DNA of 39,063 nucleotides from the IMG/VR virus record IMGVR_UViG_3300045988_105464, positions 1 to 39,063 of that record. One strand, 5' to 3'. Below, piece after piece: positions 11,594-39,063 of this stretch. The stretch comes from a virus. Positions within the stretch are counted from its first letter, which is position 1. Every line of letters starts with the position of its first letter. Below the pieces are notes generated by a model. It ran no database searches. It was not told where the DNA came from and saw nothing but the letters and a program-made list of their open reading frames with translations. Position numbers and translations under genes: made by a program.

Positions 11594-11665
11594 TGGCGCA
11601 GACGGCAGGACTTGAACCTGCGCATACCTCCGGGCGCGGTGCTCTACCGGCTGAGCTACGTCTGC
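11594..11665 (-). ncRNA. tRNA-like element with a truncated, non-canonical anticodon arm (72 nt, CCA encoded)
   Basis: GCAGACG-TA-GCTC-AGCCGGTA-GAGC...GCAGG-TTCAAGT-CCTGC-CGTCTGC-G-CCA. The acceptor, D and T arms are canonical. Only 19 nt (ACCGCGCCCGGAGGTATGC) lie between the D and T arms, so no 5-bp stem with a 7-nt loop can form. Confidence 0.6.
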
Positions 11666-11758: not shown

Positions 11759-11834
11759 TGGCGGTCCCGGCAGGGATCGAACCTGCGACCCAGCGGTTAA
11801 CAACCGCTCGCTCTTCCGACTGAGCTACGAAACC
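11759..11834 (-). tRNA. tRNA-Asn(GUU): tRNA-Asn (anticodon GTT), CCA encoded
   Basis: Hand fold: GGTTTCG/TA/GCTC-AGTCGGAA-GAGC/G/AGCGG-TTGTTAA-CCGCT/GGGTC/GCAGG-TTCGATC-CCTGC/CGGGACC/G/CCA. 76 nt. Confidence 0.9.
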
Positions 11835-20442: not shown

Positions 20443-20557
20443 CCGCACACGGGAGGAGCGCCGCCGGAGCCGGGCCGACTTCTCCGCATTGGTCTCCTTC
20501 GGCTGCTTCCTGGGCCTTTTGGCCCTGGCTTTGGCTTATATCCTGGGGGCGGTCTGA
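20429..20557 (+). CDS. 42-aa single-TM micro-protein
   Basis: GTG at 20429 follows GAGGGGG. Basic N-terminus then ALVSFGCFLGLLALALAYILGAV. Its stop overlaps the next ATG (TGATG). Confidence 0.4.
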   Translation: MKRDNRTREERRRSRADFSALVSFGCFLGLLALALAYILGAV

Positions 20558-20745
20558 TGGGCCGCCGCCGTCAAATGAAAGAACTGCCGCCCTGCCCCCG
20601 CTGTGGGATGTACGGCGGCAAGCGCATGGTCGCTCAGGGGAACACGGATGGCTTCTTCGTTCTCTGCGATTCCTGCGGCTACCGAACGAAAAACTATACG
20701 GACATCGCCCACGCGGTCCGTGTCTGGAGGGAAACTCAGCTATGA
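20557..20745 (+). CDS. Lar-like zinc-ribbon protein (restriction-alleviation family)
   Basis: LPPCPRCG...FFVLCDSCGYRT...AHAVRVW matches the Lar-family layout (CPxCG, a second CxxCG, and a terminal A...W). Confidence 0.6.
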   Translation: MGRRRQMKELPPCPRCGMYGGKRMVAQGNTDGFFVLCDSCGYRTKNYTDIAHAVRVWRETQL

Positions 20746-21538: not shown

Positions 21539-22254
21539 ATGAACTCGCCCTGTACCAATACAACGCCGCCGCCCTGACGGTGGCCCCCGTCCCCCGCTCC
21601 GGCAATTACACCATCTGCGCCCCAGACGGCGCGCCCGCCGTCCTGAAACGCGGCATCGACTTCGGCATGATCCGAAAGAAGAACGGCGACGCCATGACGA
21701 AAAACCCCACCCTCTTCAAGTCCGGCGCGGAGAAGGTGGCCGTGGCCTACGGCCTCTGCCAGCGCTACACCTTGGAAAGCAAGCTGGAGGACATCGAGCA
21801 TGGCTTTTTCTATTTCCTTGTCCGCTGCGACCTTATCAAGATCTATGACGGCAAGGAATACGTCATTACCTCCGCTTACGGCTCCGGCAACACCCGCGAG
21901 GGCCGCACCGGCTCCCAGTCCCCCTATGACGGCGCCAACAGCGCGGTCAAGATGGCTCAGAAACGCGCCCTGGTCTCCGCCGCCCTGTCCCTCGGCTGCG
22001 TCTCCGATATGTTTACGCAGGACATTGAGAGCGACACCGAGGATGGCAGCGCCTACATGACCAACAAGGACCCCAACGCCCCCATTACCGCCGCGCAGGT
22101 CAAATTCTTCTATTCTGCTTGTTCCCGCCACGGCCTGACGAAGCAGGAGGCGAAAGCCCTCTTGAAGTCCCACGGCTATGACAGCGCCAGCAAGGTACTC
22201 AGCAAGGACTTTGACGCCCTTCTGGATGCACTGGAACCGAAGGAGGATGCCTGA
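21535..22254 (+). CDS. Single-strand annealing recombinase (ERF/Rad52-like superfamily, family not resolved)
   Basis: 239 aa. The segment DGANSAVKMAQKRALVSAALSLG resembles the conserved helix of ERF/Sak-type annealing proteins. The gene is flanked by the nuclease and SSB genes. Confidence 0.55.
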   Translation: MNELALYQYNAAALTVAPVPRSGNYTICAPDGAPAVLKRGIDFGMIRKKNGDAMTKNPTLFKSGAEKVAVAYGLCQRYTLESKLEDIEHGFFYFLVRCDLIKIYDGKEYVITSAYGSGNTREGRTGSQSPYDGANSAVKMAQKRALVSAALSLGCVSDMFTQDIESDTEDGSAYMTNKDPNAPITAAQVKFFYSACSRHGLTKQEAKALLKSHGYDSASKVLSKDFDALLDALEPKEDA

Positions 22255-22670
22255 TGTTTATGAACGGACTGCCCACCTACAGCAAGGAGGGCAAACAGCT
22301 GAAAACCGGCCTGATCGTGGGCCGCGCCGCCAAGGGCGGCCAGATCTACGCCACCCAGAGCGGAAAGGAGGTCGGCTCCGTCTCCGTACCGGCCTACGAT
22401 AAGCAGGACGGCACCACCGCATGGCTCACCGTCAAGGGCTGGGGCCATTGGGCACGGCTCCTTGCCAATGTCCGCAAGGGCGATTCCGTATTCGCCGTGG
22501 GCCGCGTGGAGAGCCACGACTATGAGGGCAAGACCTATAACGATTTGGTGGCGGATTACGTCTGCGTTTCTGCCAGCACCGCTGGACAGACCACCGCCCA
22601 AAGTGCCTATGCCGCCCCCGCCCCCAATAATTTCACCGAAATTGAGGATGACGGGGAGCTTCCTTTTTAA
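22254..22670 (+). CDS. ssb: Single-stranded DNA-binding protein
   Basis: OB-fold-like N-terminal domain, a low-complexity linker, and the canonical acidic tip EDDGELPF. Confidence 0.85.
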   Translation: MFMNGLPTYSKEGKQLKTGLIVGRAAKGGQIYATQSGKEVGSVSVPAYDKQDGTTAWLTVKGWGHWARLLANVRKGDSVFAVGRVESHDYEGKTYNDLVADYVCVSASTAGQTTAQSAYAAPAPNNFTEIEDDGELPF

Positions 22671-22846: not shown

Positions 22847-23251
22847 ATGAAAAGAGAAGATATCCAGAAGCTGTTTAACCTGATAGAAACCCTCTATCCC
22901 AGTGCAAAGAAAAATCCCAGGATCCCCGCAGTACTGGAAGCCTGGGCGCTTGTATTGGAGCCGTGGAGCTATGAGGACGCAAAGCAAGCAGTCATTATTC
23001 GTGCCAGGGAAAACCGCTTCCCGCCGGACGCTTCCGAGCTTGTCCCCTACCTACCGAAACCGGAACAGCCTTCGGAGAATGCTCCAGAACCGGCGGAACC
23101 AACCCCCGCCCAACTGGAAAAGTTCTATGTGAAATGCAAAGCCCTGCATGAGCGGTGGAAATCCGCAGGCATCCCCACCCCCTCCGAAACGAAGAAACAG
23201 GGGATGACTTATGCGGGCTGGGAATCGATAGCGAAAGGAGCTGGTGTGTAA
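22847..23251 (+). CDS. G39P-like helicase loader / replisome-organiser-type protein (tentative)
   Basis: N-terminal KLFNLIETLYPSAKKN...VLEAWALVLEPWSYEDAKQAV...PPDASEL resembles the loader/inhibitor-of-G40P family pattern. Confidence 0.45.
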   Translation: MKREDIQKLFNLIETLYPSAKKNPRIPAVLEAWALVLEPWSYEDAKQAVIIRARENRFPPDASELVPYLPKPEQPSENAPEPAEPTPAQLEKFYVKCKALHERWKSAGIPTPSETKKQGMTYAGWESIAKGAGV

Positions 23252-23478
23252 TGGCCGCAAATATTAAGCTGTCGGATTGCCTCATTGTCCCCCACAGTCA
23301 GCCCTGCTGGGATTGTGCCAACGCCTGCGGCGGCTGCTCATGGTCGAGAGAGGGGGAACCTGTCCCCGGCTGGAAGGCGGAGCCGGTCATCATTCGGAAT
23401 AACCTGAACCGCGACCCGGACGATTTCTCCGCCAAATCTTTCAAAATCCATGCCTGCCCCCAATTTGTGAGAGGATGA
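23251..23478 (+). CDS. Cys-rich small protein
   Basis: ATG at 23251 overlaps the preceding TAA. 75 aa with CWDCANACGGCSW. Confidence 0.55.
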   Translation: MAANIKLSDCLIVPHSQPCWDCANACGGCSWSREGEPVPGWKAEPVIIRNNLNRDPDDFSAKSFKIHACPQFVRG

Positions 23479-23729
23479 TTTACGGAATGTTTGGAACACG
23501 AAAATTAGAAGCAGAAATAGCCTGGCTGAGTTGTCGCGTGGCAGAGCTGGAAGAACGGCTTTGCCCATGTGAACAGCATGACTGGAAACGCACCGGAGTT
23601 GATTACAGCTACGATAGAACAGGCTGCTGCGCTGCCGCCATGTATAACTACAAGTGCGCAAGGTGCGGCAAAAAAATGCGCTCCTTCCAGTCGTACCTGG
23701 AAAATGCTGAGGAGGATGACTGTGGTTAG
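23475..23729 (+). CDS. Cys-rich small protein with an N-terminal coiled segment
   Basis: 84 aa with ATGA coupling and CPC...CC...CARCG. Confidence 0.55.
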   Translation: MIYGMFGTRKLEAEIAWLSCRVAELEERLCPCEQHDWKRTGVDYSYDRTGCCAAAMYNYKCARCGKKMRSFQSYLENAEEDDCG

Positions 23730-23859
23730 GCTTGTGATTGACATGCAGGAGGACGGCGACCTGCTGGCCTGCAAGGAGACGGTTGCTATGCTGCTGGAGC
23801 CCATCGGCCGGGTGCGTATCGTGCAAATCATTGTAGACGGAAAGGAAGAAAAACGATGA
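23722..23859 (+). CDS. Hypothetical 45-aa protein
   Basis: GTG at 23722 lies 6 nt after GGAGG (the ATG at 23716 has no spacer). Its stop overlaps the ATG of the repeat protein. Confidence 0.4.
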   Translation: MVRLVIDMQEDGDLLACKETVAMLLEPIGRVRIVQIIVDGKEEKR

Positions 23860-24461
23860 AAATTGATAAACTGTGGAACGGCCTGAAGCGGATCGCCAAC
23901 GGCGATTATGTGCTGGAAGGGGATCTGATCTCCGAAGAAACCATCGAAATCGATCTGAACGACCGCTTTGTGGTGAGGGGCCGCATCCAGACGAAAAAGA
24001 GCATTGTTGTTCGCTGTGGCATCGAGGCTGGCGATGGCATCAAGGCTGGATGTGGCATCGAGGCTGGCTGTGGCATCGAGGCTGGCGAGGGCATCGAGGC
24101 TGGCTGTGGCATCGAGGCTGGCTGGGGCATCAAGGCTGGATGGGGCATCGAGGCTGGCGATGGCATCAAGGCTGGATGTGGCATCGAGGCTGGCGAGGGC
24201 ATCGAGGCTGGCGATGGCATCGAGGCTGGCGAGGGCATCGAGGCTGGCGATGGCATCAAGGCTGGCGAGGGCATCAAGGCTGGCGAGGGCATCAAGGCTG
24301 AAAAGTTTATTGATGTTCAAAAGCGCATTTTCGCCGGAATTTCGGTTTATCGGACAAGCAGGGACTGCGATAAAACCATCCGCTGTGCGGAGCTGCGGAA
24401 CGGCGAAATCTGCTATGGAGATTTGACGCTGACGAAGGAGGGCAAGCCGGATGAAGGTTGA
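23856..24461 (+). CDS. Acidic hexapeptide-repeat protein, 16 x G-I-(E/K)-A-G-x, predicted beta-solenoid
   Basis: 201 aa. After an N-terminal 54 aa the sequence is GIEAGD GIKAGC GIEAGC GIEAGE ... GIKAEK. The C-terminal 50 aa are non-repetitive. Confidence 0.8.
   Translation: MKIDKLWNGLKRIANGDYVLEGDLISEETIEIDLNDRFVVRGRIQTKKSIVVRCGIEAGDGIKAGCGIEAGCGIEAGEGIEAGCGIEAGWGIKAGWGIEAGDGIKAGCGIEAGEGIEAGDGIEAGEGIEAGDGIKAGEGIKAGEGIKAEKFIDVQKRIFAGISVYRTSRDCDKTIRCAELRNGEICYGDLTLTKEGKPDEG
24018..24300 (+). repeat. 18-bp tandem repeat, about 16 copies (ggcatcgaggctggcgat consensus)
   Basis: Read directly. The repeat is open in several frames on both strands, which explains the stacked ORF-track entries here. 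Confidence 0.95.
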
Positions 24462-24486
24462 ATCTACCGTCCCCGTTCTTTACCCG

Positions 24487-24615
24487 ATGGGGGTTTATAC
24501 GTTTGCCTTTGCATGTGTCCATTGTGCAAACAGACATTCAGACAAATGCCACCTGTGCAAGTGCGAGAAAAAAAGCGGCTTTGAGCCGAAGAAAGAGGCG
24601 GACAATGAAAATTGA
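24487..24615 (+). CDS. Possible 42-aa Cys-rich micro-protein (weak RBS)
   Basis: MGVYTFAFACVHCANRHSDKCHLCKCEKKSGFEPKKEADNEN. Its stop overlaps the rusA start region. No clear Shine-Dalgarno sequence. Confidence 0.3.
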   Translation: MGVYTFAFACVHCANRHSDKCHLCKCEKKSGFEPKKEADNEN

Positions 24616-25012
24616 ATTTACGGTCCCCGGTATTCCGGTAGGCAAGGGCCGTCCACGGTTCATGAAAAACGGCCACACCTACACCCCGCAGAGAACGCGG
24701 GACTACGAGGACAAGATAGTCCAGTGCTGGAAGTGCCAGAGCGGGAAAGGCTTTGCGGCGGGCGTGCCGCTCAGGGCCACCGTCACGGCGTTCTTTACGG
24801 TGCCAAAGAGCACGTCAAAGAAAAAGGCCGCTACGATGGACGGGACGCCCCACATCAAGCGCCCTGACGCCGACAACGTAGCGAAGGCCATTCTGGACGC
24901 GCTGAACGGCCACGCTTACAACGATGATAGCGCAATCGCAGCTTTGGCGGTGTGGAAGTACCAGACAACCGGTGCCTCCCGTGTGGAGGTCACTATTGAG
25001 GAGGAAAAATGA
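24605..25012 (+). CDS. rusA: RusA-family Holliday junction resolvase
   Basis: ATG at 24605 (RBS AAGAGG). GKGRPRF...TP..T..YE...KRPDADNVAKAILDALNG..Y.DDS is the RusA signature. Confidence 0.85.
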   Translation: MKIEFTVPGIPVGKGRPRFMKNGHTYTPQRTRDYEDKIVQCWKCQSGKGFAAGVPLRATVTAFFTVPKSTSKKKAATMDGTPHIKRPDADNVAKAILDALNGHAYNDDSAIAALAVWKYQTTGASRVEVTIEEEK

Positions 25013-26315: not shown

Positions 26316-26893
26316 GTAAAGCTGTTATGCTTAGCATCCGCCCCAAGTGGGCGGAGAAGATTGCCAACGGTGAAAAGACGATCGAGGTGCGCAAGACGCG
26401 GCCGAAGTTGGACACACCGTTTAAGTGCTATATCTACTGCACGAAGGACAAGCACCTTGCATTCATGCAGAATAGATTTAGTACGAAATTGATCGCCTGC
26501 ATGGACGCTGAAACGGCAATCCCTGTCGGCGGGACCGTAGGAAATGGCAAAATCATCGGCGAGTTTACCTGCGACCGGATCTACGAGTTGGAGGCCAAGG
26601 CGCACGGCGGCAGCTACTACGTTAAGAACGAAGACCAGCCGACGACGAATTTTATCGCACGGCAGTCCTGCCTTGATCTCAAGGATATGCACGATTATCT
26701 GCACGCGCAAAAGGGCTACGGATGGCACATTACCGATCTGCGCATCTACGACGCACCGAAGTGCTTGTTTGAGTTTTGGGCGGAAAGGCTTTGCAGACGC
26801 GAGCCAAGCGTCTTCGGGTGCGGAGAATGTTGCGATTGCGATAAGCGCGCGCCGCAGAGCTGGTGCTATGTGGAGGCGATGAAGGATGAATGA
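26312..26893 (+). CDS. ASCH-domain protein
   Basis: N-terminal MLSIRPKWAEKIANGEKTIEVRKTRP is the typical ASCH/PUA-like opening. 193 aa. ATGA coupling. Confidence 0.7.
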   Translation: MSKAVMLSIRPKWAEKIANGEKTIEVRKTRPKLDTPFKCYIYCTKDKHLAFMQNRFSTKLIACMDAETAIPVGGTVGNGKIIGEFTCDRIYELEAKAHGGSYYVKNEDQPTTNFIARQSCLDLKDMHDYLHAQKGYGWHITDLRIYDAPKCLFEFWAERLCRREPSVFGCGECCDCDKRAPQSWCYVEAMKDE

Positions 26894-27164
26894 CCTGAAA
26901 CCATGCCCGTTCTGCGGCGGCACAAAACTCAAGATAGACCGAAAGTCGCGGCTTGCCGGGTGGAATGGTCTTGATATGCGCGTAGAAATGCACACCTACT
27001 CTGTCCGATGCAACATCTGCCACGCGCGTGGTGGCGCTGTTGGCGGTCGCGTTATGAATGACCCGTGGACACGCTGCACTCAGCTTCCCGACTGGGCTAC
27101 GACGGACAAAGCTCTGGAAGCAAAAGCAATCGAGGAATGGAACAGGCGGGAGGAAAGAACATGA
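26886..27164 (+). CDS. Lar-family restriction-alleviation-like zinc-ribbon protein
   Basis: KPCPFCGG...YSVRCNICHARG...AIEEWNRR matches the classic Lar layout. Confidence 0.7.
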   Translation: MNDLKPCPFCGGTKLKIDRKSRLAGWNGLDMRVEMHTYSVRCNICHARGGAVGGRVMNDPWTRCTQLPDWATTDKALEAKAIEEWNRREERT

Positions 27165-31140: not shown

Positions 31141-34100
31141 TTACTTATAGGGGTTCTTGGCGTTGGTGGTACAGATAATGTCCCACAGATCCGCCCGGTT
31201 TTCCTGACCGGCAAGGGCCGCGCTGGCCTCCGCCTTGCTGACCCTGCCGTTTCCGTTCGCGTCGGCCCTGTCCTTCATGGAGAAATACTCCTTGGGGGAA
31301 AGTCCGGCATCATGTGCCTGCTTTACCTTCTCATAGGCTTTCCCGCTCATTTTCTCGCTGCCGTACTTCTGGTACAGGGCCAGAAATTCCCCGGTGGATA
31401 CACCGATGTCCCGCTTGGACGTTTTGGCGTTCTCAATCCACTTGGCGCTGGGCTCATACTTGGGGTCCACCTGCTGACGGGCTGTCTCACGCGCATATTT
31501 ATACACGTTCTGGATGTAGTCCGACTTTTCACTGTCGCTCATGGACTTGTAGGCAGGCAGCTTCACCGCCGCTTCCACCAGCTCCTTCCGCGTCTGCCCC
31601 ATGGCCTTGGCGTACCGGGTGTATTCCTCGCCGGTCATGGTCCGGGTCTCGCCCCCCACCGTATAGGACTTTTCCGCCGCCGCCGGATAAACAGTGCTGT
31701 CTCCGGTGGCCTTTGCCAGCCGCCGGATCTCCTGCGTGGCGGGGCTGTTGTCCTGCGCTTTCAGGAAGCCGGGGGAGAAGAAGGACTGGAACACCCGCTC
31801 CGGCGCGGAGCCGTTGGAGACCTCATTGCCCCACATATCCACCATGGGCTGAAGCTGATTCCGTGCGCCGGGGACCTTCTTCGCCGCCCCCTGCAAGAAA
31901 TAATTCACGTCAGAGGCCACCTGCCCGGAACCCTTTTCCACATAGCTTTTGCGCACCGTATCATCAAATACGGACGCAACCTTGCTTCCGATGGTGGGGA
32001 TATACTGTCCGGCATAGCTACTGGCCGCCTTGCTGATAAGATATGCCCCCGGATCATCCGCATAACTCCAATAGGAGACCAGATCATTCAGGGCGGACAG
32101 CATGGAGGTTTCCCAAATAACGCTGCCAATATTCTTAGTGGCATCTACAAGAGAAACAAATGTCCCGCCGCCCTTCTGAACGGATTTCATGGTGGCAGCG
32201 CCCGCGAACAGGGGCATTGCCACAGGAAGCGCCCAGTCCAATGTATAGGACTTGTCCCCGATCTGGATGGCATAATCCTGTCCGCCCATGGCCTTTTCAA
32301 AGGCCTCCTCCTTGTCATCGTCACCGGCCCGGATGTGGAGCAGCCCCTCCGCCGCCAGATAAGCGCCCAGCGCGAAAATGCCGGTTCCGGTGAGGCCGGA
32401 TGCAAGGGAATCCACGGCGTCCGCCGCCGTGCAGTTACCTCTCCGCACATCCCACAGAGCTTCCTTCACACTCTTTACAATGCCAACAGGGCTGTAATCA
32501 AGACCCGTGGTCAGGATATTGGCCGGGGTCTTGCGGAAGGGGAGAAGCGCATCGGTGACAAAACTTATACCGCGCTCAACAATATTGTCACTCGCATCAT
32601 ACCGGCCGCGCTTGGACAGCGCCTCAGAAAGCGCCGTGGTGTTGCGGTAGGTAGCCTTCTGTGCTTCCTCAATGGCGTAGGCCCGTGCCGCCTCCACGTC
32701 TGCGGCTCTGGTGCCCGCGTGGGCCTCTGCCGCCGTCACGCCTTTGGCTTGCAGTGCTTGGGCGAAGCTGTCTACATAGGCGTTCCGGTTGAAGCGCAAG
32801 TCCTCTCGATCCAGCAATTCGCTGTTCTTTTCGCCTATCCACTGGATAGACCGGGAGAGAACGTCCTCCCCCTTGAACATTTTCCGCTTGCTCTGGATCT
32901 CCCGCTCAATACCTGCCGCCGTGGCGTCGGAATACTTTCCGCTGCCCATAGCCGCGCTCTGGTCCGTCTCATACTGGCCCTTGGCAAAGGCTTTCAGGTC
33001 CTTGTCAACATTCACGGCCTTTGTCCGCTGAGAAGGGTCCTTGATGACCGCCCGCTCGATTGCGGTTCCGATGCCGTTCTTGATCTTCCGTGCGCCCATC
33101 TGAATGGCGTTGCCCATGATGTTGCGGATGTGGGTGGTGGGGTTGGTCAGCATGGAGGTGTACCGCCAGAAATTGGCCTTCTCCATGAAGGTGCTGGGGA
33201 TCTGGTCTGCAATGGACGTTGTGATGGCGTCCCACGCCGCCGCCCGCTCCGCGTCCGTCTCTGCCATCAGGTAGTTGGTTGCCAGCTCGTCAGAGAGCGT
33301 AAAGCCCGTTACCTTGTCGATGTAGTCCACCCGTGCGCTTTCCACGTCTCCGCTGTCGGTGGTGCTCTGCCGGGGCGTCCGGTTCTGCCGTGCCGCCCGG
33401 TCATTCATTCGGTCTACCAGCCGCCGCAGCGTCAGCAAACGGCCTTCCGGCGTCAACCGGTTCATCAGGTTCATGGCCTGCACCATCTGTGCGCTGTCAT
33501 GGGCCGCGTCCGCAATGGCTGTTGCCAGCTCAAAGGCGGCCTTGTGGTCTCCTTCGGAAATGGCGAGGTTGTATGCGCTGATGGCCTCGGCGGTGTCCGC
33601 CTTAGTGATCCGCTGCCCCAGCTCCGCCTTGGCAACGAAACTGTTCGCCACCTCGCGCCAGCCGTCCCGCGCGATCTTGGCCTGCGCCTGCTGCACGGCG
33701 CTCCGGTCCGTCACCACATCATAGTCGAACGCGCCGCTGGAAATGGCGTTTTCATACACAGTTGCCATCTCCGGGGAGGTCAGGGGGCTGTTCAGAATGG
33801 TGGAGACCGTTTTCTCCACATTCCGCCCGGTATCAGGGTTCACAACGGGAACCTCAGAGGGCGCCCGCCGCTGTTCTGCCTGGATGCGCTGGGCGCTGTT
33901 GGGGTTGACCGGGTGGAACTCCTCACTCTTGGCCTGCATGGTGTCAAAGCCTGTATTAACCGCACCCGCCACGGCGTCACCCGGCGTGTCGAAAGCATCC
34001 ACACCCTCTAAGCCGCGGCCCTGCGCCTGCTCACCAGCCCCCAAAATGCCCTGCTTGGTGGTGAGATACCCGCTGTTGGGTTCCACCGTTTCCCCGGTCA

Positions 34101-36579
34101 TGGTGGTGTAGCCGTGGGAGAGCATATCGTCCAGGATCAGCTCCACCCGCTTGGCCGCCGCCACGTTCTCCTGCCCCTGATCGGTGATGATCCGCTGGGC
34201 TGCGTCGATAATGGCGTCACGGGAGAGGCCGGTCTCATTCATGGCCTGACGCAGATGGGGAGAGGTCTGCGCCGCCTGCTGGACGGTGTTACCCTCCATG
34301 GTCCGCTCATAACGGCGGCTCATGGGCTGCTGGAGGGAGAGGTCTGCATCCGCGATCAGGGCGTTGGCCGCTTCCTGATAATAGCGGTGCAGTTCCGGGT
34401 GGTCGAACTGGAAGGCGTTCATGTCTCTGCCGCCCACCGTTTCCATCCGCCGCCGGTCGATGTGCTGCTCCGGGTCGATCTGGAACACCTTGCCGGTGGC
34501 GTCCATGCCCACGGTGCCCGCCTCGTTGGCCCGGAAAACGGCGTCCTGCTGGGCCTCCGTCATGGTATTCAGGTTCGCTCGCTTCCTCCCGAACAGAACC
34601 TCGGAAAGAATGTCCCGGCTTCCCCCGTTCTTGACATTTTCCGCCCCCTGTGCTATGCTATCATTAGCATTGAGGGGACGCGTACCCTCAACAGGGCTTG
34701 ACGCCGCAGAGGAAGGCACGGGTGCTGGACCCGCCAACCTGGCCTCTGCGGGTGTCAGGTCCATTTTTATAATCTGATGGGTCCGATAATTGTTTGCACC
34801 GGGTAGCACTTCAACATCAAATTTTGCGATATAGTCGGTGCCGTTGATTTGCACAGGGGTTTCAAAGTAATCATACCGAACACCGGGGCGATTTCTTCCG
34901 CTATGCTGCGTATATTCTCCACTCCCAACATAGGTCCCGTTCCTAACAACATCGGGAAGATTGCTCAGGAGAGACAGCTTTTCCGCAGTCAGGTTTACAT
35001 CACTGATAACCTTTCCGGGCACGTTGTTATTGATGTCTACCGCGTAGGGCTGTCCGTCGAAAGAGGTTCCCTCTACAACAACGCCCTTTGCGGGCTTGAA
35101 GATGCTCTTGTAGACGTTCTTCAGCGTACTCTTGAAGCTCTGCCCCGGCAGAGAAGATTCCAGCCCCCGCGCCCCGGCAATACTGTTCCGCGCTTGGGTC
35201 AAGGCGTCACTGCTCACCTGCACCGGCGCTGTGTTCTGCCGCTGGGTCTGGGTCGGCACTTCGCCCTTGTAAGGCTTCTTGATGGTAGTCGCCTGACCCA
35301 CCCGAATATTCTCCGCCGTCTCCACACCGGGGGCGGCGTTTTGCGCGCCCTCTGCGGCGTTTGCGGGTGCAGGGGTATAAGTATCCTCCCGCACCTCCGG
35401 GCGCGTCTTCTGCGTGGGCTGTGCGTCCGCCTGGCCGTTTCCACGCTGTCTGATGACGTCAACACCTGCGCCGATGCCGCCCATGGCCGCGCCCACCGCC
35501 GCGTCATACAGTGCCTCACTCAGATCAAACCGGGCAGAGGGGTCATAGGTGGCCCGCTGCAAAACGGGCTGGAAAATATCCTCGATAAATTCCTCACCGC
35601 CCTCGGAGATCATGGAGAGGGCCACGCGGCCCGCCGCGCTGTTGTTCAGCTTGGAAAGCGCGCCGCTGACGGCGTTGTCCAGAACACCGCTGCCGAACGC
35701 CTTCTTGAAGGGGCTTGCCACGTTGCTGATCTTCTCCGTGGCAAGGCTCAGCGCACCGCTGCCCAGTCCGTAGGCAAGCTGTTGGTTGTAGTTGGCCCCG
35801 GCCTGTCTGGCCCGTTGGGCGCTGCTCCCGGCGGAACGGGCCGTCATCAGAGCGAGACCGGATCCGGGGATCACGGCGCTGGCCGCAACATCCCCCGCCA
35901 TCTGTACGCCCTGCACGCCCAGATCCACGGCGAACTGACCCACCGGCCCCAGCCCTTTCTTGGCCTGTGCCACGTCCGCAGCAGAGCTTTGAGACAGGCG
36001 GTCCGCCTTCTGATACGCCTTGTCCGCCACCGCCTTGTCGGACCGCTCCACCGCCTTGGTGTAGCCATCATGGGCCGCGATGCGGCGTTTTGCCGCCGCA
36101 AGGTAGCTCTGCACCTGCTTCACGTCCGCCGCCGTCATGGCCTTGCCGTTGGCCCACTTCACGTCCCGGAGCATCTTTTCATACCGCTTTACCGCGTCAT
36201 GGTCGCTTTGAAGGGAATCCCCGGCGTTCTGGTTGGCGATCCGGGTGTTCAGCTTCCCGGCCCCCTCTGCCAGCACACCGCCCAGATTCGTAAAGGAGGA
36301 ACCGGCGGACTTCGTTGCGCCGGTCACAATGTTTTTGACGCGGCTGGACGCATTGTTTTTGACGCGGGTGGGGTCTGCCACAAAGCCCTGCTGCTTCCCT
36401 GCGTCCGTGGTGGTTTTCTGCGTTGTGGCGGGCTTGGGAACAGAAGATTTCCGTTTCCCATAAGCCACCAAATCGGGCATTTGCGTTGCATTTTTCTGGG
36501 GGGATGTGGAACTTCCGGCGGTAGACTTTACTGATTTGTTTTTTCCATAAGCCACCAAATCGGGCATTTGAACTGCCAT
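31141..36579 (-). CDS. 1812-aa virion-associated polyvalent / ejection-type protein
   Basis: RBS AAGGAG. Last gene of the late operon. Features a duplicated N-terminal QMPDLVAYGK motif, Ala/Gly-rich hydrophobic stretches, a YDYFETPVQINGTDYIAKFDVEV segment, and a C-terminal EF-hand-like loop. Confidence 0.6.
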   Translation of the reverse strand: MAVQMPDLVAYGKNKSVKSTAGSSTSPQKNATQMPDLVAYGKRKSSVPKPATTQKTTTDAGKQQGFVADPTRVKNNASSRVKNIVTGATKSAGSSFTNLGGVLAEGAGKLNTRIANQNAGDSLQSDHDAVKRYEKMLRDVKWANGKAMTAADVKQVQSYLAAAKRRIAAHDGYTKAVERSDKAVADKAYQKADRLSQSSAADVAQAKKGLGPVGQFAVDLGVQGVQMAGDVAASAVIPGSGLALMTARSAGSSAQRARQAGANYNQQLAYGLGSGALSLATEKISNVASPFKKAFGSGVLDNAVSGALSKLNNSAAGRVALSMISEGGEEFIEDIFQPVLQRATYDPSARFDLSEALYDAAVGAAMGGIGAGVDVIRQRGNGQADAQPTQKTRPEVREDTYTPAPANAAEGAQNAAPGVETAENIRVGQATTIKKPYKGEVPTQTQRQNTAPVQVSSDALTQARNSIAGARGLESSLPGQSFKSTLKNVYKSIFKPAKGVVVEGTSFDGQPYAVDINNNVPGKVISDVNLTAEKLSLLSNLPDVVRNGTYVGSGEYTQHSGRNRPGVRYDYFETPVQINGTDYIAKFDVEVLPGANNYRTHQIIKMDLTPAEARLAGPAPVPSSAASSPVEGTRPLNANDSIAQGAENVKNGGSRDILSEVLFGRKRANLNTMTEAQQDAVFRANEAGTVGMDATGKVFQIDPEQHIDRRRMETVGGRDMNAFQFDHPELHRYYQEAANALIADADLSLQQPMSRRYERTMEGNTVQQAAQTSPHLRQAMNETGLSRDAIIDAAQRIITDQGQENVAAAKRVELILDDMLSHGYTTMTGETVEPNSGYLTTKQGILGAGEQAQGRGLEGVDAFDTPGDAVAGAVNTGFDTMQAKSEEFHPVNPNSAQRIQAEQRRAPSEVPVVNPDTGRNVEKTVSTILNSPLTSPEMATVYENAISSGAFDYDVVTDRSAVQQAQAKIARDGWREVANSFVAKAELGQRITKADTAEAISAYNLAISEGDHKAAFELATAIADAAHDSAQMVQAMNLMNRLTPEGRLLTLRRLVDRMNDRAARQNRTPRQSTTDSGDVESARVDYIDKVTGFTLSDELATNYLMAETDAERAAAWDAITTSIADQIPSTFMEKANFWRYTSMLTNPTTHIRNIMGNAIQMGARKIKNGIGTAIERAVIKDPSQRTKAVNVDKDLKAFAKGQYETDQSAAMGSGKYSDATAAGIEREIQSKRKMFKGEDVLSRSIQWIGEKNSELLDREDLRFNRNAYVDSFAQALQAKGVTAAEAHAGTRAADVEAARAYAIEEAQKATYRNTTALSEALSKRGRYDASDNIVERGISFVTDALLPFRKTPANILTTGLDYSPVGIVKSVKEALWDVRRGNCTAADAVDSLASGLTGTGIFALGAYLAAEGLLHIRAGDDDKEEAFEKAMGGQDYAIQIGDKSYTLDWALPVAMPLFAGAATMKSVQKGGGTFVSLVDATKNIGSVIWETSMLSALNDLVSYWSYADDPGAYLISKAASSYAGQYIPTIGSKVASVFDDTVRKSYVEKGSGQVASDVNYFLQGAAKKVPGARNQLQPMVDMWGNEVSNGSAPERVFQSFFSPGFLKAQDNSPATQEIRRLAKATGDSTVYPAAAEKSYTVGGETRTMTGEEYTRYAKAMGQTRKELVEAAVKLPAYKSMSDSEKSDYIQNVYKYARETARQQVDPKYEPSAKWIENAKTSKRDIGVSTGEFLALYQKYGSEKMSGKAYEKVKQAHDAGLSPKEYFSMKDRADANGNGRVSKAEASAALAGQENRADLWDIICTTNAKNPYK

Positions 36580-38512: not shown

Positions 38513-39063
38513 TTATCCGTTCCAATCCGAGCGGGTTTCCCGGACGTCGATATGCGTGAAGCTGCCATAAATCCCCACGCCGCCCCAGTCCGGCATCAGC
38601 GTCCGGGCATAAGCCGCCACCGCTGCCGGTGTCTGCCCCTTCACGGAAATGTCCGCCGCCGTGCCATAACAGTGCTGGCTGTGGGCTGCGCCGTCCACCT
38701 GCTTGTTATACTGCGGCGTGCGATAGGCGCTGTGAATGATCACCGGAACGCCAAAGTGGCTGCGGATGCTCTGCAGCACCATCACCAGCCGGGGCGCCAC
38801 CAGCACGGCATCGGAGCCGTCCTTGCAGGCAAACTCGCTGACCTTGAAATTGCCGGACAGCTTCTTGCCGCCGTCCTTCGCCTTGGAATAGGCGTTGATC
38901 TCTACCATAGGTTTCTCTCCTTCCGGCTCATTGTCTGCGCTCTTGTACTTCCACACCAGGAAGAACGGGATCACCCGCCCATCCCCAGTGAATCCTTTGC
39001 CCTCGCTGTCCATGAAGCAGGCGCTTCCGCCTCCGTCCATCATGATGGCGTTGTCCCAGCCGG
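38513..39063 (-). CDS. Endolysin, C-terminal segment (peptidase M15A-type zinc D,D-/L,D-peptidase domain), continuous with 1..502
   Basis: FKVSEFACKDGSD...IIHSAYRTPQYN...HSQHCYGTAADISV...FTHIDV carries the H/D/H zinc ligand layout of M15 peptidases. The frame is continuous across the 36-bp overlap, giving a joined length of 338 aa. Confidence 0.8.
   Translation of the reverse strand, partial: GWDNAIMMDGGGSACFMDSEGKGFTGDGRVIPFFLVWKYKSADNEPEGEKPMVEINAYSKAKDGGKKLSGNFKVSEFACKDGSDAVLVAPRLVMVLQSIRSHFGVPVIIHSAYRTPQYNKQVDGAAHSQHCYGTAADISVKGQTPAAVAAYARTLMPDWGGVGIYGSFTHIDVRETRSDWNG
39028..39063. repeat. Terminal 36-bp identity with 1..36
   Basis: See the first feature. Confidence 0.95.

Follow-up and report, generated by a model that had tools for sequence, protein, structure and literature searches.

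Bactofilins (PF04519; BacA, TtBac) are right-handed proteins built of triangular windings of ~17 amino acids (aa), with aliphatic residues in the core, Glu, Lys and Arg forming a network on the surface, and Gly at the corners (10.1101/617639). Their windings are fixed at six, and they carry disordered tails and a membrane-targeting sequence. FapA/DUF342 proteins (PF03961) and the C-terminal domain of MinC (MinC-C; PF03775) are placed in the same fold class, FapA proteins being larger, cellular and equipped with extra domains. The left-handed β-helix (LbH) transferases (LpxA/LpxD/GlmU; PF00132) use a six-residue repeat with three repeats per turn, for which the canonical motif is [LIV]-[GAED]-x2-[STAV]-x. 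The pentapeptide proteins Qnr and MfpA use a five-residue repeat, A(D/N)LXX, and four sides, and are examples of β-helical DNA mimics. Here we describe a gene at positions 23856..24461 (plus strand) of the IMG/VR virus record IMGVR_UViG_3300045988_105464, a stretch of ~39 kb from human-gut metagenomes (39,063 nucleotides; hereafter the window). Its product contains 16 tandem hexapeptides of the type GI(E/K)AG(D/E/C/W), with six residues per unit and, by prediction, three sides per turn.

The explanation that best accounted for the data overall, and that we consider probable, was a capped solenoid of variable length acting as an interaction scaffold in host takeover. The two parts of this explanation differ in strength. 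That the protein is a capped, three-sided β-solenoid whose length is set by an in-frame variable-number tandem repeat (VNTR) is highly likely. A role in host takeover as a rigid scaffold or adaptor, perhaps with a link to anti-restriction, is a tentative proposal.

The repeat array and its length variation

The gene and its three segments, all on the plus strand, are as follows.

23856..24461, plus: complete open reading frame (ORF) of 201 aa plus stop; predicted capped β-solenoid protein of an unnamed phage family (ORF list, homologues, AlphaFold2)
23856..24017, plus: conserved N-terminal 54 aa, the predicted first solenoid turns as degenerate hexads (AlphaFold2 strands, alignment A1)
24018..24305, plus: VNTR of 16 in-frame 18-bp units encoding GI(E/K)AG(D/E/C/W) (Tandem Repeats Finder, unit table)
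24306..24461, plus: conserved C-terminal 51 aa, comprising the hexads FIDVQK and RIFAGI followed by a loop and a small sheet (alignment A1, AlphaFold2)

Direct reading of the sequence, Tandem Repeats Finder and in-frame dissection agreed on the array. Tandem Repeats Finder placed it at 24017..24300, with a period of 18, 15.8 copies, 87% matches and a score of 372; the runner-up tandem array in the window scored 51. An earlier note, made from the sequence alone, had described 16 perfect hexapeptide repeats. The 16 in-frame units stood, but only 15 of them match GI[EK]AG[DECW], the sixteenth (GIKAEK) being imperfect. The residues it had listed at position 6 (D, E, C and W, with K in the last unit) were those found (D4, E5, C4, W2, K1). 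Its other tallies changed on recounting: position 3 is E in ten units and K in six (not 11 and 5), position 6 is acidic in nine (not ten), and the net charge of the 96-aa repeat block was computed as −13 (not about −15). The whole protein has a net charge of −12 and an isoelectric point of 4.66. The N-terminal flank is 54 aa long, as had been given, whereas the C-terminal flank is 51 aa rather than 50. Both flanks had been called non-repetitive, but degenerate hexads continue on either side (SIVVRC before the array; FIDVQK and RIFAGI after it) and the N-terminus is part of the predicted solenoid.

Across the 16 units, 12 of the 18 nucleotide positions are invariant. The variable ones are nucleotide 7, which determines E or K, nucleotide 14 (in the last unit only), nucleotide 15 (synonymous GGC/GGA) and nucleotides 16–18, which form the position-6 codon. 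The array is composed of eight unit types, and its longest exact internal repeats are 51 nt. Assemblies from two independent studies (L001, L002) contain the same 16-unit allele.

The segments on either side of the array were conserved in homologues (alignment A1). Y18, L24, L34 and G42 were near-invariant in the N-terminal segment; in the C-terminal segment, R157-I-F-A-G161, C177, G183, G188 and L190 were invariant and C171 nearly so. Conservation of both protein ends fixes the reading frame of the gene. Three other ORFs in the region, at 23505..24320 (minus), 23873..24301 (plus) and 24004..24426 (plus), are by-products of the repeat, which is stop-free in other frames. The antisense ORF at 23505..24320 is, at 271 aa, longer than the real gene, and longest-ORF calling picks the wrong strand.

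The earlier note had also expected the copy number to be hypervariable, and comparison of repeat numbers bore this out. Alleles of 2, 5 (two versions), 7 and 16 units had caps and 220 nt of upstream sequence that were 99–100% identical; within the 2–7-unit alleles, 160–162 of the 162 nt of the N-terminal segment were identical. A further allele, of 22 units, had caps that were 99.7% identical. Array size across the family ranged from 2 to 35 units. The long arrays were aperiodic mosaics of 5–13 unit types in which duplications of multi-unit blocks were visible. Nearly every nucleotide-distinct unit was also amino-acid-distinct, and the variation within arrays is thus almost all nonsynonymous and confined to positions 3 and 6. 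A diversity-generating retroelement was considered and rejected, as the variable sites were not adenine-specific and neither a template repeat nor a reverse transcriptase was seen among the nearby gene calls.

Many IMG/VR contigs were found to begin or end inside the gene (L033, L036, L039, L040, L048, L050, L051, L059), and four contigs carried it split over both ends (pairs L044+L045, L047+L052, L055+L058 and L037+L053). The split-gene contigs are apparently circular genomes of ~35–43 kb that were opened by the assembler at the 18-bp array, which is a systematic breakpoint for short-read phage assemblies. The same contig ends could be taken to mean that the array, or its length, is itself an assembly artefact. 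This is scarcely credible, however, since the identical 16-unit allele came from independent studies, the arrays are mosaics of 5 to 13 unit types rather than simple loops, and the frame and both ends are kept in hundreds of diverged homologues.

Codon usage separated a function of the protein from one of the DNA. Between phages, G1 was encoded by GGC, GGT or GGA, I2 by ATC or ATT, A4 by GCT, GCC, GCA or GCG, and G5 by GGC, GGT, GGA or GGG, while codons were homogenised within any one array. For the non-repeat caps, nonsynonymous divergence (dN) was 0.10–0.38 and synonymous divergence (dS) was saturated, giving dN/dS ≤0.16. The synonymous codon differences with invariant residues, together with the dN/dS of the caps, point to selection on the protein, with the arrays evolving in concert. 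Alternatively, the array could work as DNA, either as origin iterons or as a protein-binding array like the lambda origin within gene O, with the peptide being incidental. The 18-bp unit is iteron-sized, it lies within a replication/recombination module and its DNA is strongly homogenised within the array. Against this, unit DNA differs between phages at synonymous third positions while the G, I, A and G residues are invariant, diverged relatives keep the protein hexads without a DNA repeat, copy number varies from 2 to 35, and the units are contiguous with no spacers. A DNA role for the array is therefore very improbable, and an iteron or origin function of the 18-bp unit was rejected on the codon evidence.

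Predicted fold and its closest relatives

The 16-unit protein was modelled with AlphaFold2 using a 96-sequence alignment. The result was the regular β-solenoid that the earlier note had anticipated from such a prediction, with a predicted local distance difference test score (pLDDT) of 92.7, a predicted template-modelling score of 0.86 and one strand per hexad. Short strands occurred in every hexad from residue 10 to residue 160, and their start-to-start spacing, as assigned by DSSP, repeated as 5-7-6, which corresponds to three strands per 18 residues. The N-terminal strands were at residues 10–12, 18–20, 24–26, 30–32, 38–40, 43–46 and 50–52. As the strands recur in every hexad from residue 10, the 54-aa N-terminus is predicted to be the first part of the same solenoid. 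At the C-terminal end, a long strand (151–160) that holds RIFAG was followed by a short helix (168–170) and strands within residues 174–192. The pLDDT exceeded 90 from residue 1, and disorder was limited to residues 197–201.

A natural 2-unit allele (P0021, 117 aa) was also modelled, with a pLDDT of 91.6 and identical terminal elements. That so short an allele is predicted to keep the same fold suggests that the capped solenoid is complete in itself and the array an expandable insert within it. By the strand register and general β-helix rules, each unit would direct I2 and A4 inward, place G1 and G5 at corners, and expose position 3 on a face and position 6 on an edge. Three units make one turn of ~4.8 Å, and the array of 16 units adds 5.3 turns, or ~26 Å. 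The protein had been described as rod-like; an array contributing only ~26 Å makes it a short prism instead of a long rod. Support independent of the model came from diverged members, in which the same caps enclose degenerate x-I-x-[A/S/T]-x-x hexads, and from recurrent weak profile matches to β-helix families.

A word-indexed search returned 1156 homologues, and an exhaustive profile search gave 917 clusters at 50% identity (E ≤1e-3), or 464 at E ≤1e-10, nearly all of them of proteins of 100–300 aa. The family is undescribed. Members derived from NCBI carried no names in public sources, and literature searches on hexapeptide-repeat phage anti-restriction, FapA/DUF342, YdhT and β-solenoid prophage VNTRs returned no description of it; one candidate paper on DUF342 was dropped when its subject proved to be DUF3426. 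A tblastn search with the window's protein matched none of 50,697 deposited phage genomes, and the only megablast matches to the window were short patches in unannotated contigs of human-gut phages. Sequence matches in the PDB to 9e5c and 5vj4, which are unrelated low-complexity chains, were compositional only, and homology was rejected; it was likewise rejected for marginal LbH matches (NCBIfam LpxD and PDB LpxA; E 0.15–0.5).

Profile scans covered 96 close members and 131 diverse representatives. FapA/DUF342 was the only curated model that recurrently, though weakly, recognised family members (29 of the 96 and 32 of the 131; best E 3.5e-9). MinC_C was matched by 3 of the 131, bactofilin by none of the 96 and one of the 131 (E 1.4e-5), and Hexapep by one of the 96 (E 0.0038). 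For the member P0043 the FapA score was 24.9 bits, below the gathering score of 31 bits, and the window's protein had no FapA match. These matches suggest a distant relationship of the family to FapA, of which the window's protein itself would not be a member. Whereas FapA proteins are larger and cellular, the phage proteins have their own N- and C-terminal caps, many of them with a perfect VNTR.

Structural comparison gave a similar picture. With the long model, the only PDB matches found by Foldseek were LbH acyltransferases (E ≥0.012), with template-modelling (TM) scores of ~0.2 and a root-mean-square deviation (rmsd) of ~12 Å, and these appear to be local resemblances without global superposition. 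The best superposition of the compact model was with the MinC C-domain 4v02_D (TM 0.42; rmsd 6.2 Å over 97 columns), followed by bactofilin 6ria (TM 0.31/0.37) and the ice-binding protein FfIBP (TM ~0.33); LbH enzymes reached only 0.13–0.17. The Foldseek E values of the MinC-C and bactofilin matches, 0.26 to 1.1, were non-significant. In BFVD, the matches were two uncharacterised phage proteins, which are family members, and generic large β-helix proteins.

With the profile scans also considered, the family is best placed in the FapA/MinC-C/bactofilin fold class, as a new and unnamed branch of its own outside each of those families. The bactofilin rules for winding, core, surface and Gly corners fit GI(E/K)AGx almost exactly. 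However, the number of windings in the phage family is variable, its terminal segments are conserved and structured where bactofilins have disordered tails and a membrane-targeting sequence, and its members are phage-encoded. The suggestion in the earlier note that the protein might be bactofilin-like came closer as to fold class than its idea of a DNA mimic, but the bactofilin hidden Markov model (HMM) was unmatched by the window's protein and the ends differ. For MinC-C, the superposition was the best obtained, but E values of 0.26–0.44 and identities of 12–18% do not constitute evidence of homology, and the phage family has neither the MinC N-domain nor a link to the Min system. LbH transferases share the six-residue repeat and three repeats per turn; however, they compared with the phage models at TM 0.13–0.25, rmsd 11–13 Å and E ≥0.012. 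The phage unit order, I-x-A-G-x-G, is unlike the canonical LbH motif, and the family shows no evidence of an active site or of trimers. Pentapeptide proteins differ in having five residues per repeat and four sides, and no pentapeptide Pfam model was matched by the window's protein or the 96 close members.

Escherichia coli YdhT was a further partial relative. Residues 1–55 of the family member P0032 are 40% identical to the YdhT N-terminus (E 2e-8), and the corresponding domain, YdhT_N (PF27195), forms an alternative N-terminus in a sub-branch made up of P0032, P0078, P0116 and P0120. The YdhT repeat, however, is a 9-residue xxRIxSxGx and not GIxAGx, and the window's protein lacks the YdhT N-domain. 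YdhT is chromosomal, lies in an oxidoreductase operon and is uncharacterised. With ~13 copies of its 9-residue repeat, the product of E. coli K-12 ydhT (L071 4748..5560, minus) looks like another β-solenoid.

Surface chemistry and genomic setting

Unit composition and charge were analysed in 121 proteins comprising 749 units. At position 3, E was found in 46%, K in 41% and N in 6%; at position 6, W accounted for 27%, E for 21%, C for 17% and D for 11%, with W and C together filling 44% of the exposed corner positions. The median charge was −0.40 per unit, compared to −0.81 for the window's protein, the 15th most acidic. For the repeat block as a whole, charge ranged from −14 to +9 and was zero or positive in 24 of the 121 homologues.

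Between units of an array, identity at position 3 was 0.34, 0.54, 0.37 and 0.47 at lags 1 to 4, and at position 6 identical neighbours were avoided (0.10 at lag 1 against ~0.19 expected). A 3-unit super-period had been expected as support for three sides per turn. It was absent, the lag-3 identity being equal to the shuffle value, and a 2-unit alternation was observed instead. On a rod with three units per turn, a 2-unit alternation sets E above K on each face, which would give a checkerboard and not an anionic stripe.

The residues found at position 6 (W, C, D and E; rarely G and Y) are exactly those specified by the sense codons of [G/T][A/G][T/G]. Two mutational steps separate the codon islands TGT/TGG and GAT/GAG, both of which persist across the family.

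In the window, an integrase gene and two helix-turn-helix (HTH) repressor-like genes on the minus strand are followed by a long early operon on the plus strand. The solenoid gene lies within this operon between genes for SSB and RusA, in agreement with the earlier note's claim that it is made early in infection. The surrounding features were as follows.

11759..11834 and 11597..11665, minus: tRNA elements (ARAGORN/Rfam)
20557..20745, plus: stand-alone Lar-like zinc-ribbon gene in the same operon (PF14354, 24 bits, E 4.7e-5, under the 28.6-bit cut-off)
22254..22670, plus: SSB gene, upstream in the same early operon (Pfam SSB, E 1.2e-7; gene calls in L001)
23722..23859 (L001 9867..10004), plus: upstream 45-aa gene (gene call in L001)
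23840..23848, plus: purine-rich Shine-Dalgarno-like sequence GAAAGGAAG (read directly from the sequence)
24605..25012 (L001 10750..11157), plus: RusA Holliday-junction resolvase gene, the next called downstream (Pfam RusA, E 2.9e-29)
26886..27164, plus: second stand-alone Lar-family gene in the same operon (PF14354, 35.3 bits against a cut-off of 28.6, E 1.4e-8)

The start codon of the solenoid gene and the stop codon of the 45-aa gene upstream share an ATGA at 23856..23859, which suggests translational coupling within the operon. The gap from the solenoid gene to RusA is 143 nt. Scans with Rfam and for tRNAs found nothing at the solenoid locus, and a promoter and terminator scan gave nothing above shuffle expectation.

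The gap to RusA is spanned by a 54-aa Cys-rich ORF (CxxC...CxxCxC) at 24451..24615 (plus), which shares 11 nt with the 3′ end of the solenoid gene; it was not called by the metagenome gene callers and had no Pfam match. Just upstream of the solenoid gene are two small Cys-rich ORFs, 23155..23478 and 23475..23729 (both plus), one of which carries a CWDCANACGGCSW motif while the other has a weak Zn_ribbon_8 match (E 0.002). The gene thus sits amid a run of tiny putative zinc-binding proteins. Further away, 31141..36579 (minus) encodes a protein of ~1,811 aa with an LPD3 domain (E 1e-8), whose metagenome gene call was also annotated MuF_C. It resembles a 'large polyvalent protein', a class tied to counter-defence by phages and conjugative elements, and is followed by a 635-aa protein and an M15 peptidase (38513..39043). 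As for the tRNA elements, tRNA-Asn(GTT) was found by both ARAGORN and Rfam, and the second, tRNA-like element ~100 nt away by Rfam alone (52 bits).

Related loci came from IMG/VR viral contigs of 35–43 kb and from metagenome-assembled genomes labelled Oscillospiraceae, Eubacteriales, Ruminococcus, Lawsonibacter and Ructibacterium. In 23 complete loci, the scan covered three plus-strand ORFs upstream of the gene and three downstream. RusA was the commonest neighbour across loci (7 matches). There were ten matches to DNA methyltransferases (five C5, three N6/N4 and two Dam), spread over roughly ten loci, and four to SSB; Cro/C1-type HTH proteins, Sak, ERF, Mu Gam, DUF6291 and Gp157 were also found. 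Synteny was mosaic, and no adjacent partner gene was conserved across the loci. The setting is thus the early accessory region for replication and recombination in temperate siphovirus-like phages, whose hosts are Oscillospiraceae-like gut Clostridia.

In some homologues the solenoid is fused to other domains. C-terminal Lar-type zinc ribbons (PF14354, phrog_599) were found in P0019, P0103, P0104, P0108 and P0111; a Pfam scan of the window's protein found no Lar domain. Other C-terminal additions were a ~65-aa domain of no known family (FKVVC...YKFIKIVEE) and, in some homologues, a tail of ~25 aa (MTISEIE.KLGIKNLKIK). XRE-type HTH domains were present at either end in P0123, P0124 and P0142, and an RNA polymerase alphaCTD-like domain was fused in P0163.

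Candidate functions

The function put forward in the earlier note was that of an anti-restriction DNA mimic, in which an acidic solenoid imitates B-DNA and titrates restriction or other DNA-binding defence proteins early in infection. By arithmetic from the unit table and standard β-helix geometry, the 16-unit allele carries −13 over ~26 Å, that is ~2.4 charges per 4.8 Å turn compared to 2.8 for B-DNA. No observation favours mimicry more than this charge density, yet it belongs to one allele and not to the family. Other points in its favour were a net negative charge in 96 of the 121 homologues, the early position of the gene, often near orphan methyltransferases, and the Lar-type restriction-alleviation domains, which are fused in some homologues and occur as Lar-like genes in the same operon. 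Like Ocr, ArdA, Qnr and MfpA, the protein is encoded among early or mobile-element genes; the allele is acidic, and it is predicted to be β-helical like Qnr and MfpA. However, with E and K almost equally frequent at position 3 and block charges of −14 to +9, acidity is not conserved, which makes a conserved DNA mimic unlikely. Among alleles that share a backbone, the charge per unit varies from about −0.2 to −0.86, and 2-unit alleles are nearly without an array. The W and C on 44% of exposed corners and the E/K checkerboard also argue against it, as do the DNA-binding HTH domains carried by some relatives. Searches of the PDB by sequence and by fold yielded no match to Ocr, ArdA or pentapeptide proteins. 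We regard DNA mimicry as improbable, and unsupported as a property of the family.

A cytoskeletal or division-related β-helix, either polymerising end to end like a bactofilin or binding MinD or FtsZ like MinC-C, could rearrange or arrest the host cell, and phage early genes often target cell division. The best structural matches, although non-significant, were MinC-C and bactofilin, weak HMM matches were to FapA, MinC_C and bactofilin, and the composition fits the bactofilin rules. This reading is nevertheless doubtful, given the bactofilin HMM counts (0 of 96 and 1 of 131), Foldseek E values of 0.26 to 1.1 and the structured, conserved ends in place of disordered tails and a membrane-targeting sequence; a polymer subunit varying between 2 and 35 units would, moreover, be unusual. 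The fusions to XRE-type HTH, alphaCTD-like and zinc-ribbon domains, and the small Cys-rich and zinc-ribbon ORFs around the gene, would fit a regulatory partner or oligomerisation module, that is a dimerisation or sensor domain for nearby repressor-like or zinc-ribbon proteins, with the stand-alone forms acting in trans. Yet such fusions were present in just 3 to 5 of the 131 representatives, the window's protein has no DNA-binding domain, and the mosaic synteny offers no constant partner, so that a regulatory module is likewise improbable. A more speculative idea, which we also hold to be doubtful, is of the array as a binding surface that can readily evolve, which would make it the phage equivalent of variable-repeat receptors. 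As units of a few types are gained, lost and shuffled in frame, the length, valency and chemistry of a rigid β-helix would rapidly be retuned. The phage could in this way follow the rapid evolution of a host target (a restriction or other defence protein, for instance) or evade a host sensor that recognises the protein. The nearly exclusively nonsynonymous variation within arrays at two exposed positions fits this idea, as do the avoidance of identical neighbouring units and the occurrence of very different arrays on identical backbones.

The capped, length-variable solenoid acting as a host-takeover scaffold was preferred over these alternatives, and several observations weigh against it. AlphaFold tends toward confident solenoids for perfect repeats, and its confidence is not proof. 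Foldseek searches of the PDB with the long and compact models gave no significant match, every E value being >0.01, and the window's protein had no meaningful match in Pfam (E up to 10), NCBIfam, PHROGs or PADLOC. As short-read assemblers break at the array, some short alleles may be collapsed. On the functional side, the methyltransferase neighbours are a raw count without a background control, and none of the 131 diverse representatives carried a Lar domain. The fusions as a whole are a small minority, and being both rare and mixed they make guilt by association weak.

Under the scaffold explanation, the early operon of a temperate siphovirus-like phage would yield a small soluble protein in which each 18-bp unit forms one side of a triangular prism and three units one turn. 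Since the units are near-identical in DNA and a multiple of three nucleotides, the array could expand and contract in frame, through slippage or unequal recombination and often by several units at once. Each gain or loss would change the length of the rod between fixed ends without unfolding it. The surface decorated with E, K, W and C, or else the conserved C-terminal end, may recognise a partner from the host or the phage; where a Lar zinc ribbon or HTH domain is attached, as in some relatives, the rod may serve to present it. The Lar-like genes in the operon and the frequent methyltransferase neighbours lend circumstantial support to restriction evasion or host takeover, and anti-restriction or anti-defence is, on this circumstantial evidence, the most plausible specific function.

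The family is widespread and nameless, and its place in gut Clostridia phages is the early 'accessory' region, a frequent site of anti-defence genes. It offers a clear natural example of protein length governed by an in-frame VNTR, with one predicted solenoid side per 18 bp, and is useful as a model of repeat-protein evolution and as a design template for length-tunable β-helical rods. With long reads, the array could also serve as a strain-typing marker. If the link to anti-restriction suggested by the Lar fusions and methyltransferase neighbours is true, these proteins would represent a new class of anti-defence scaffold.

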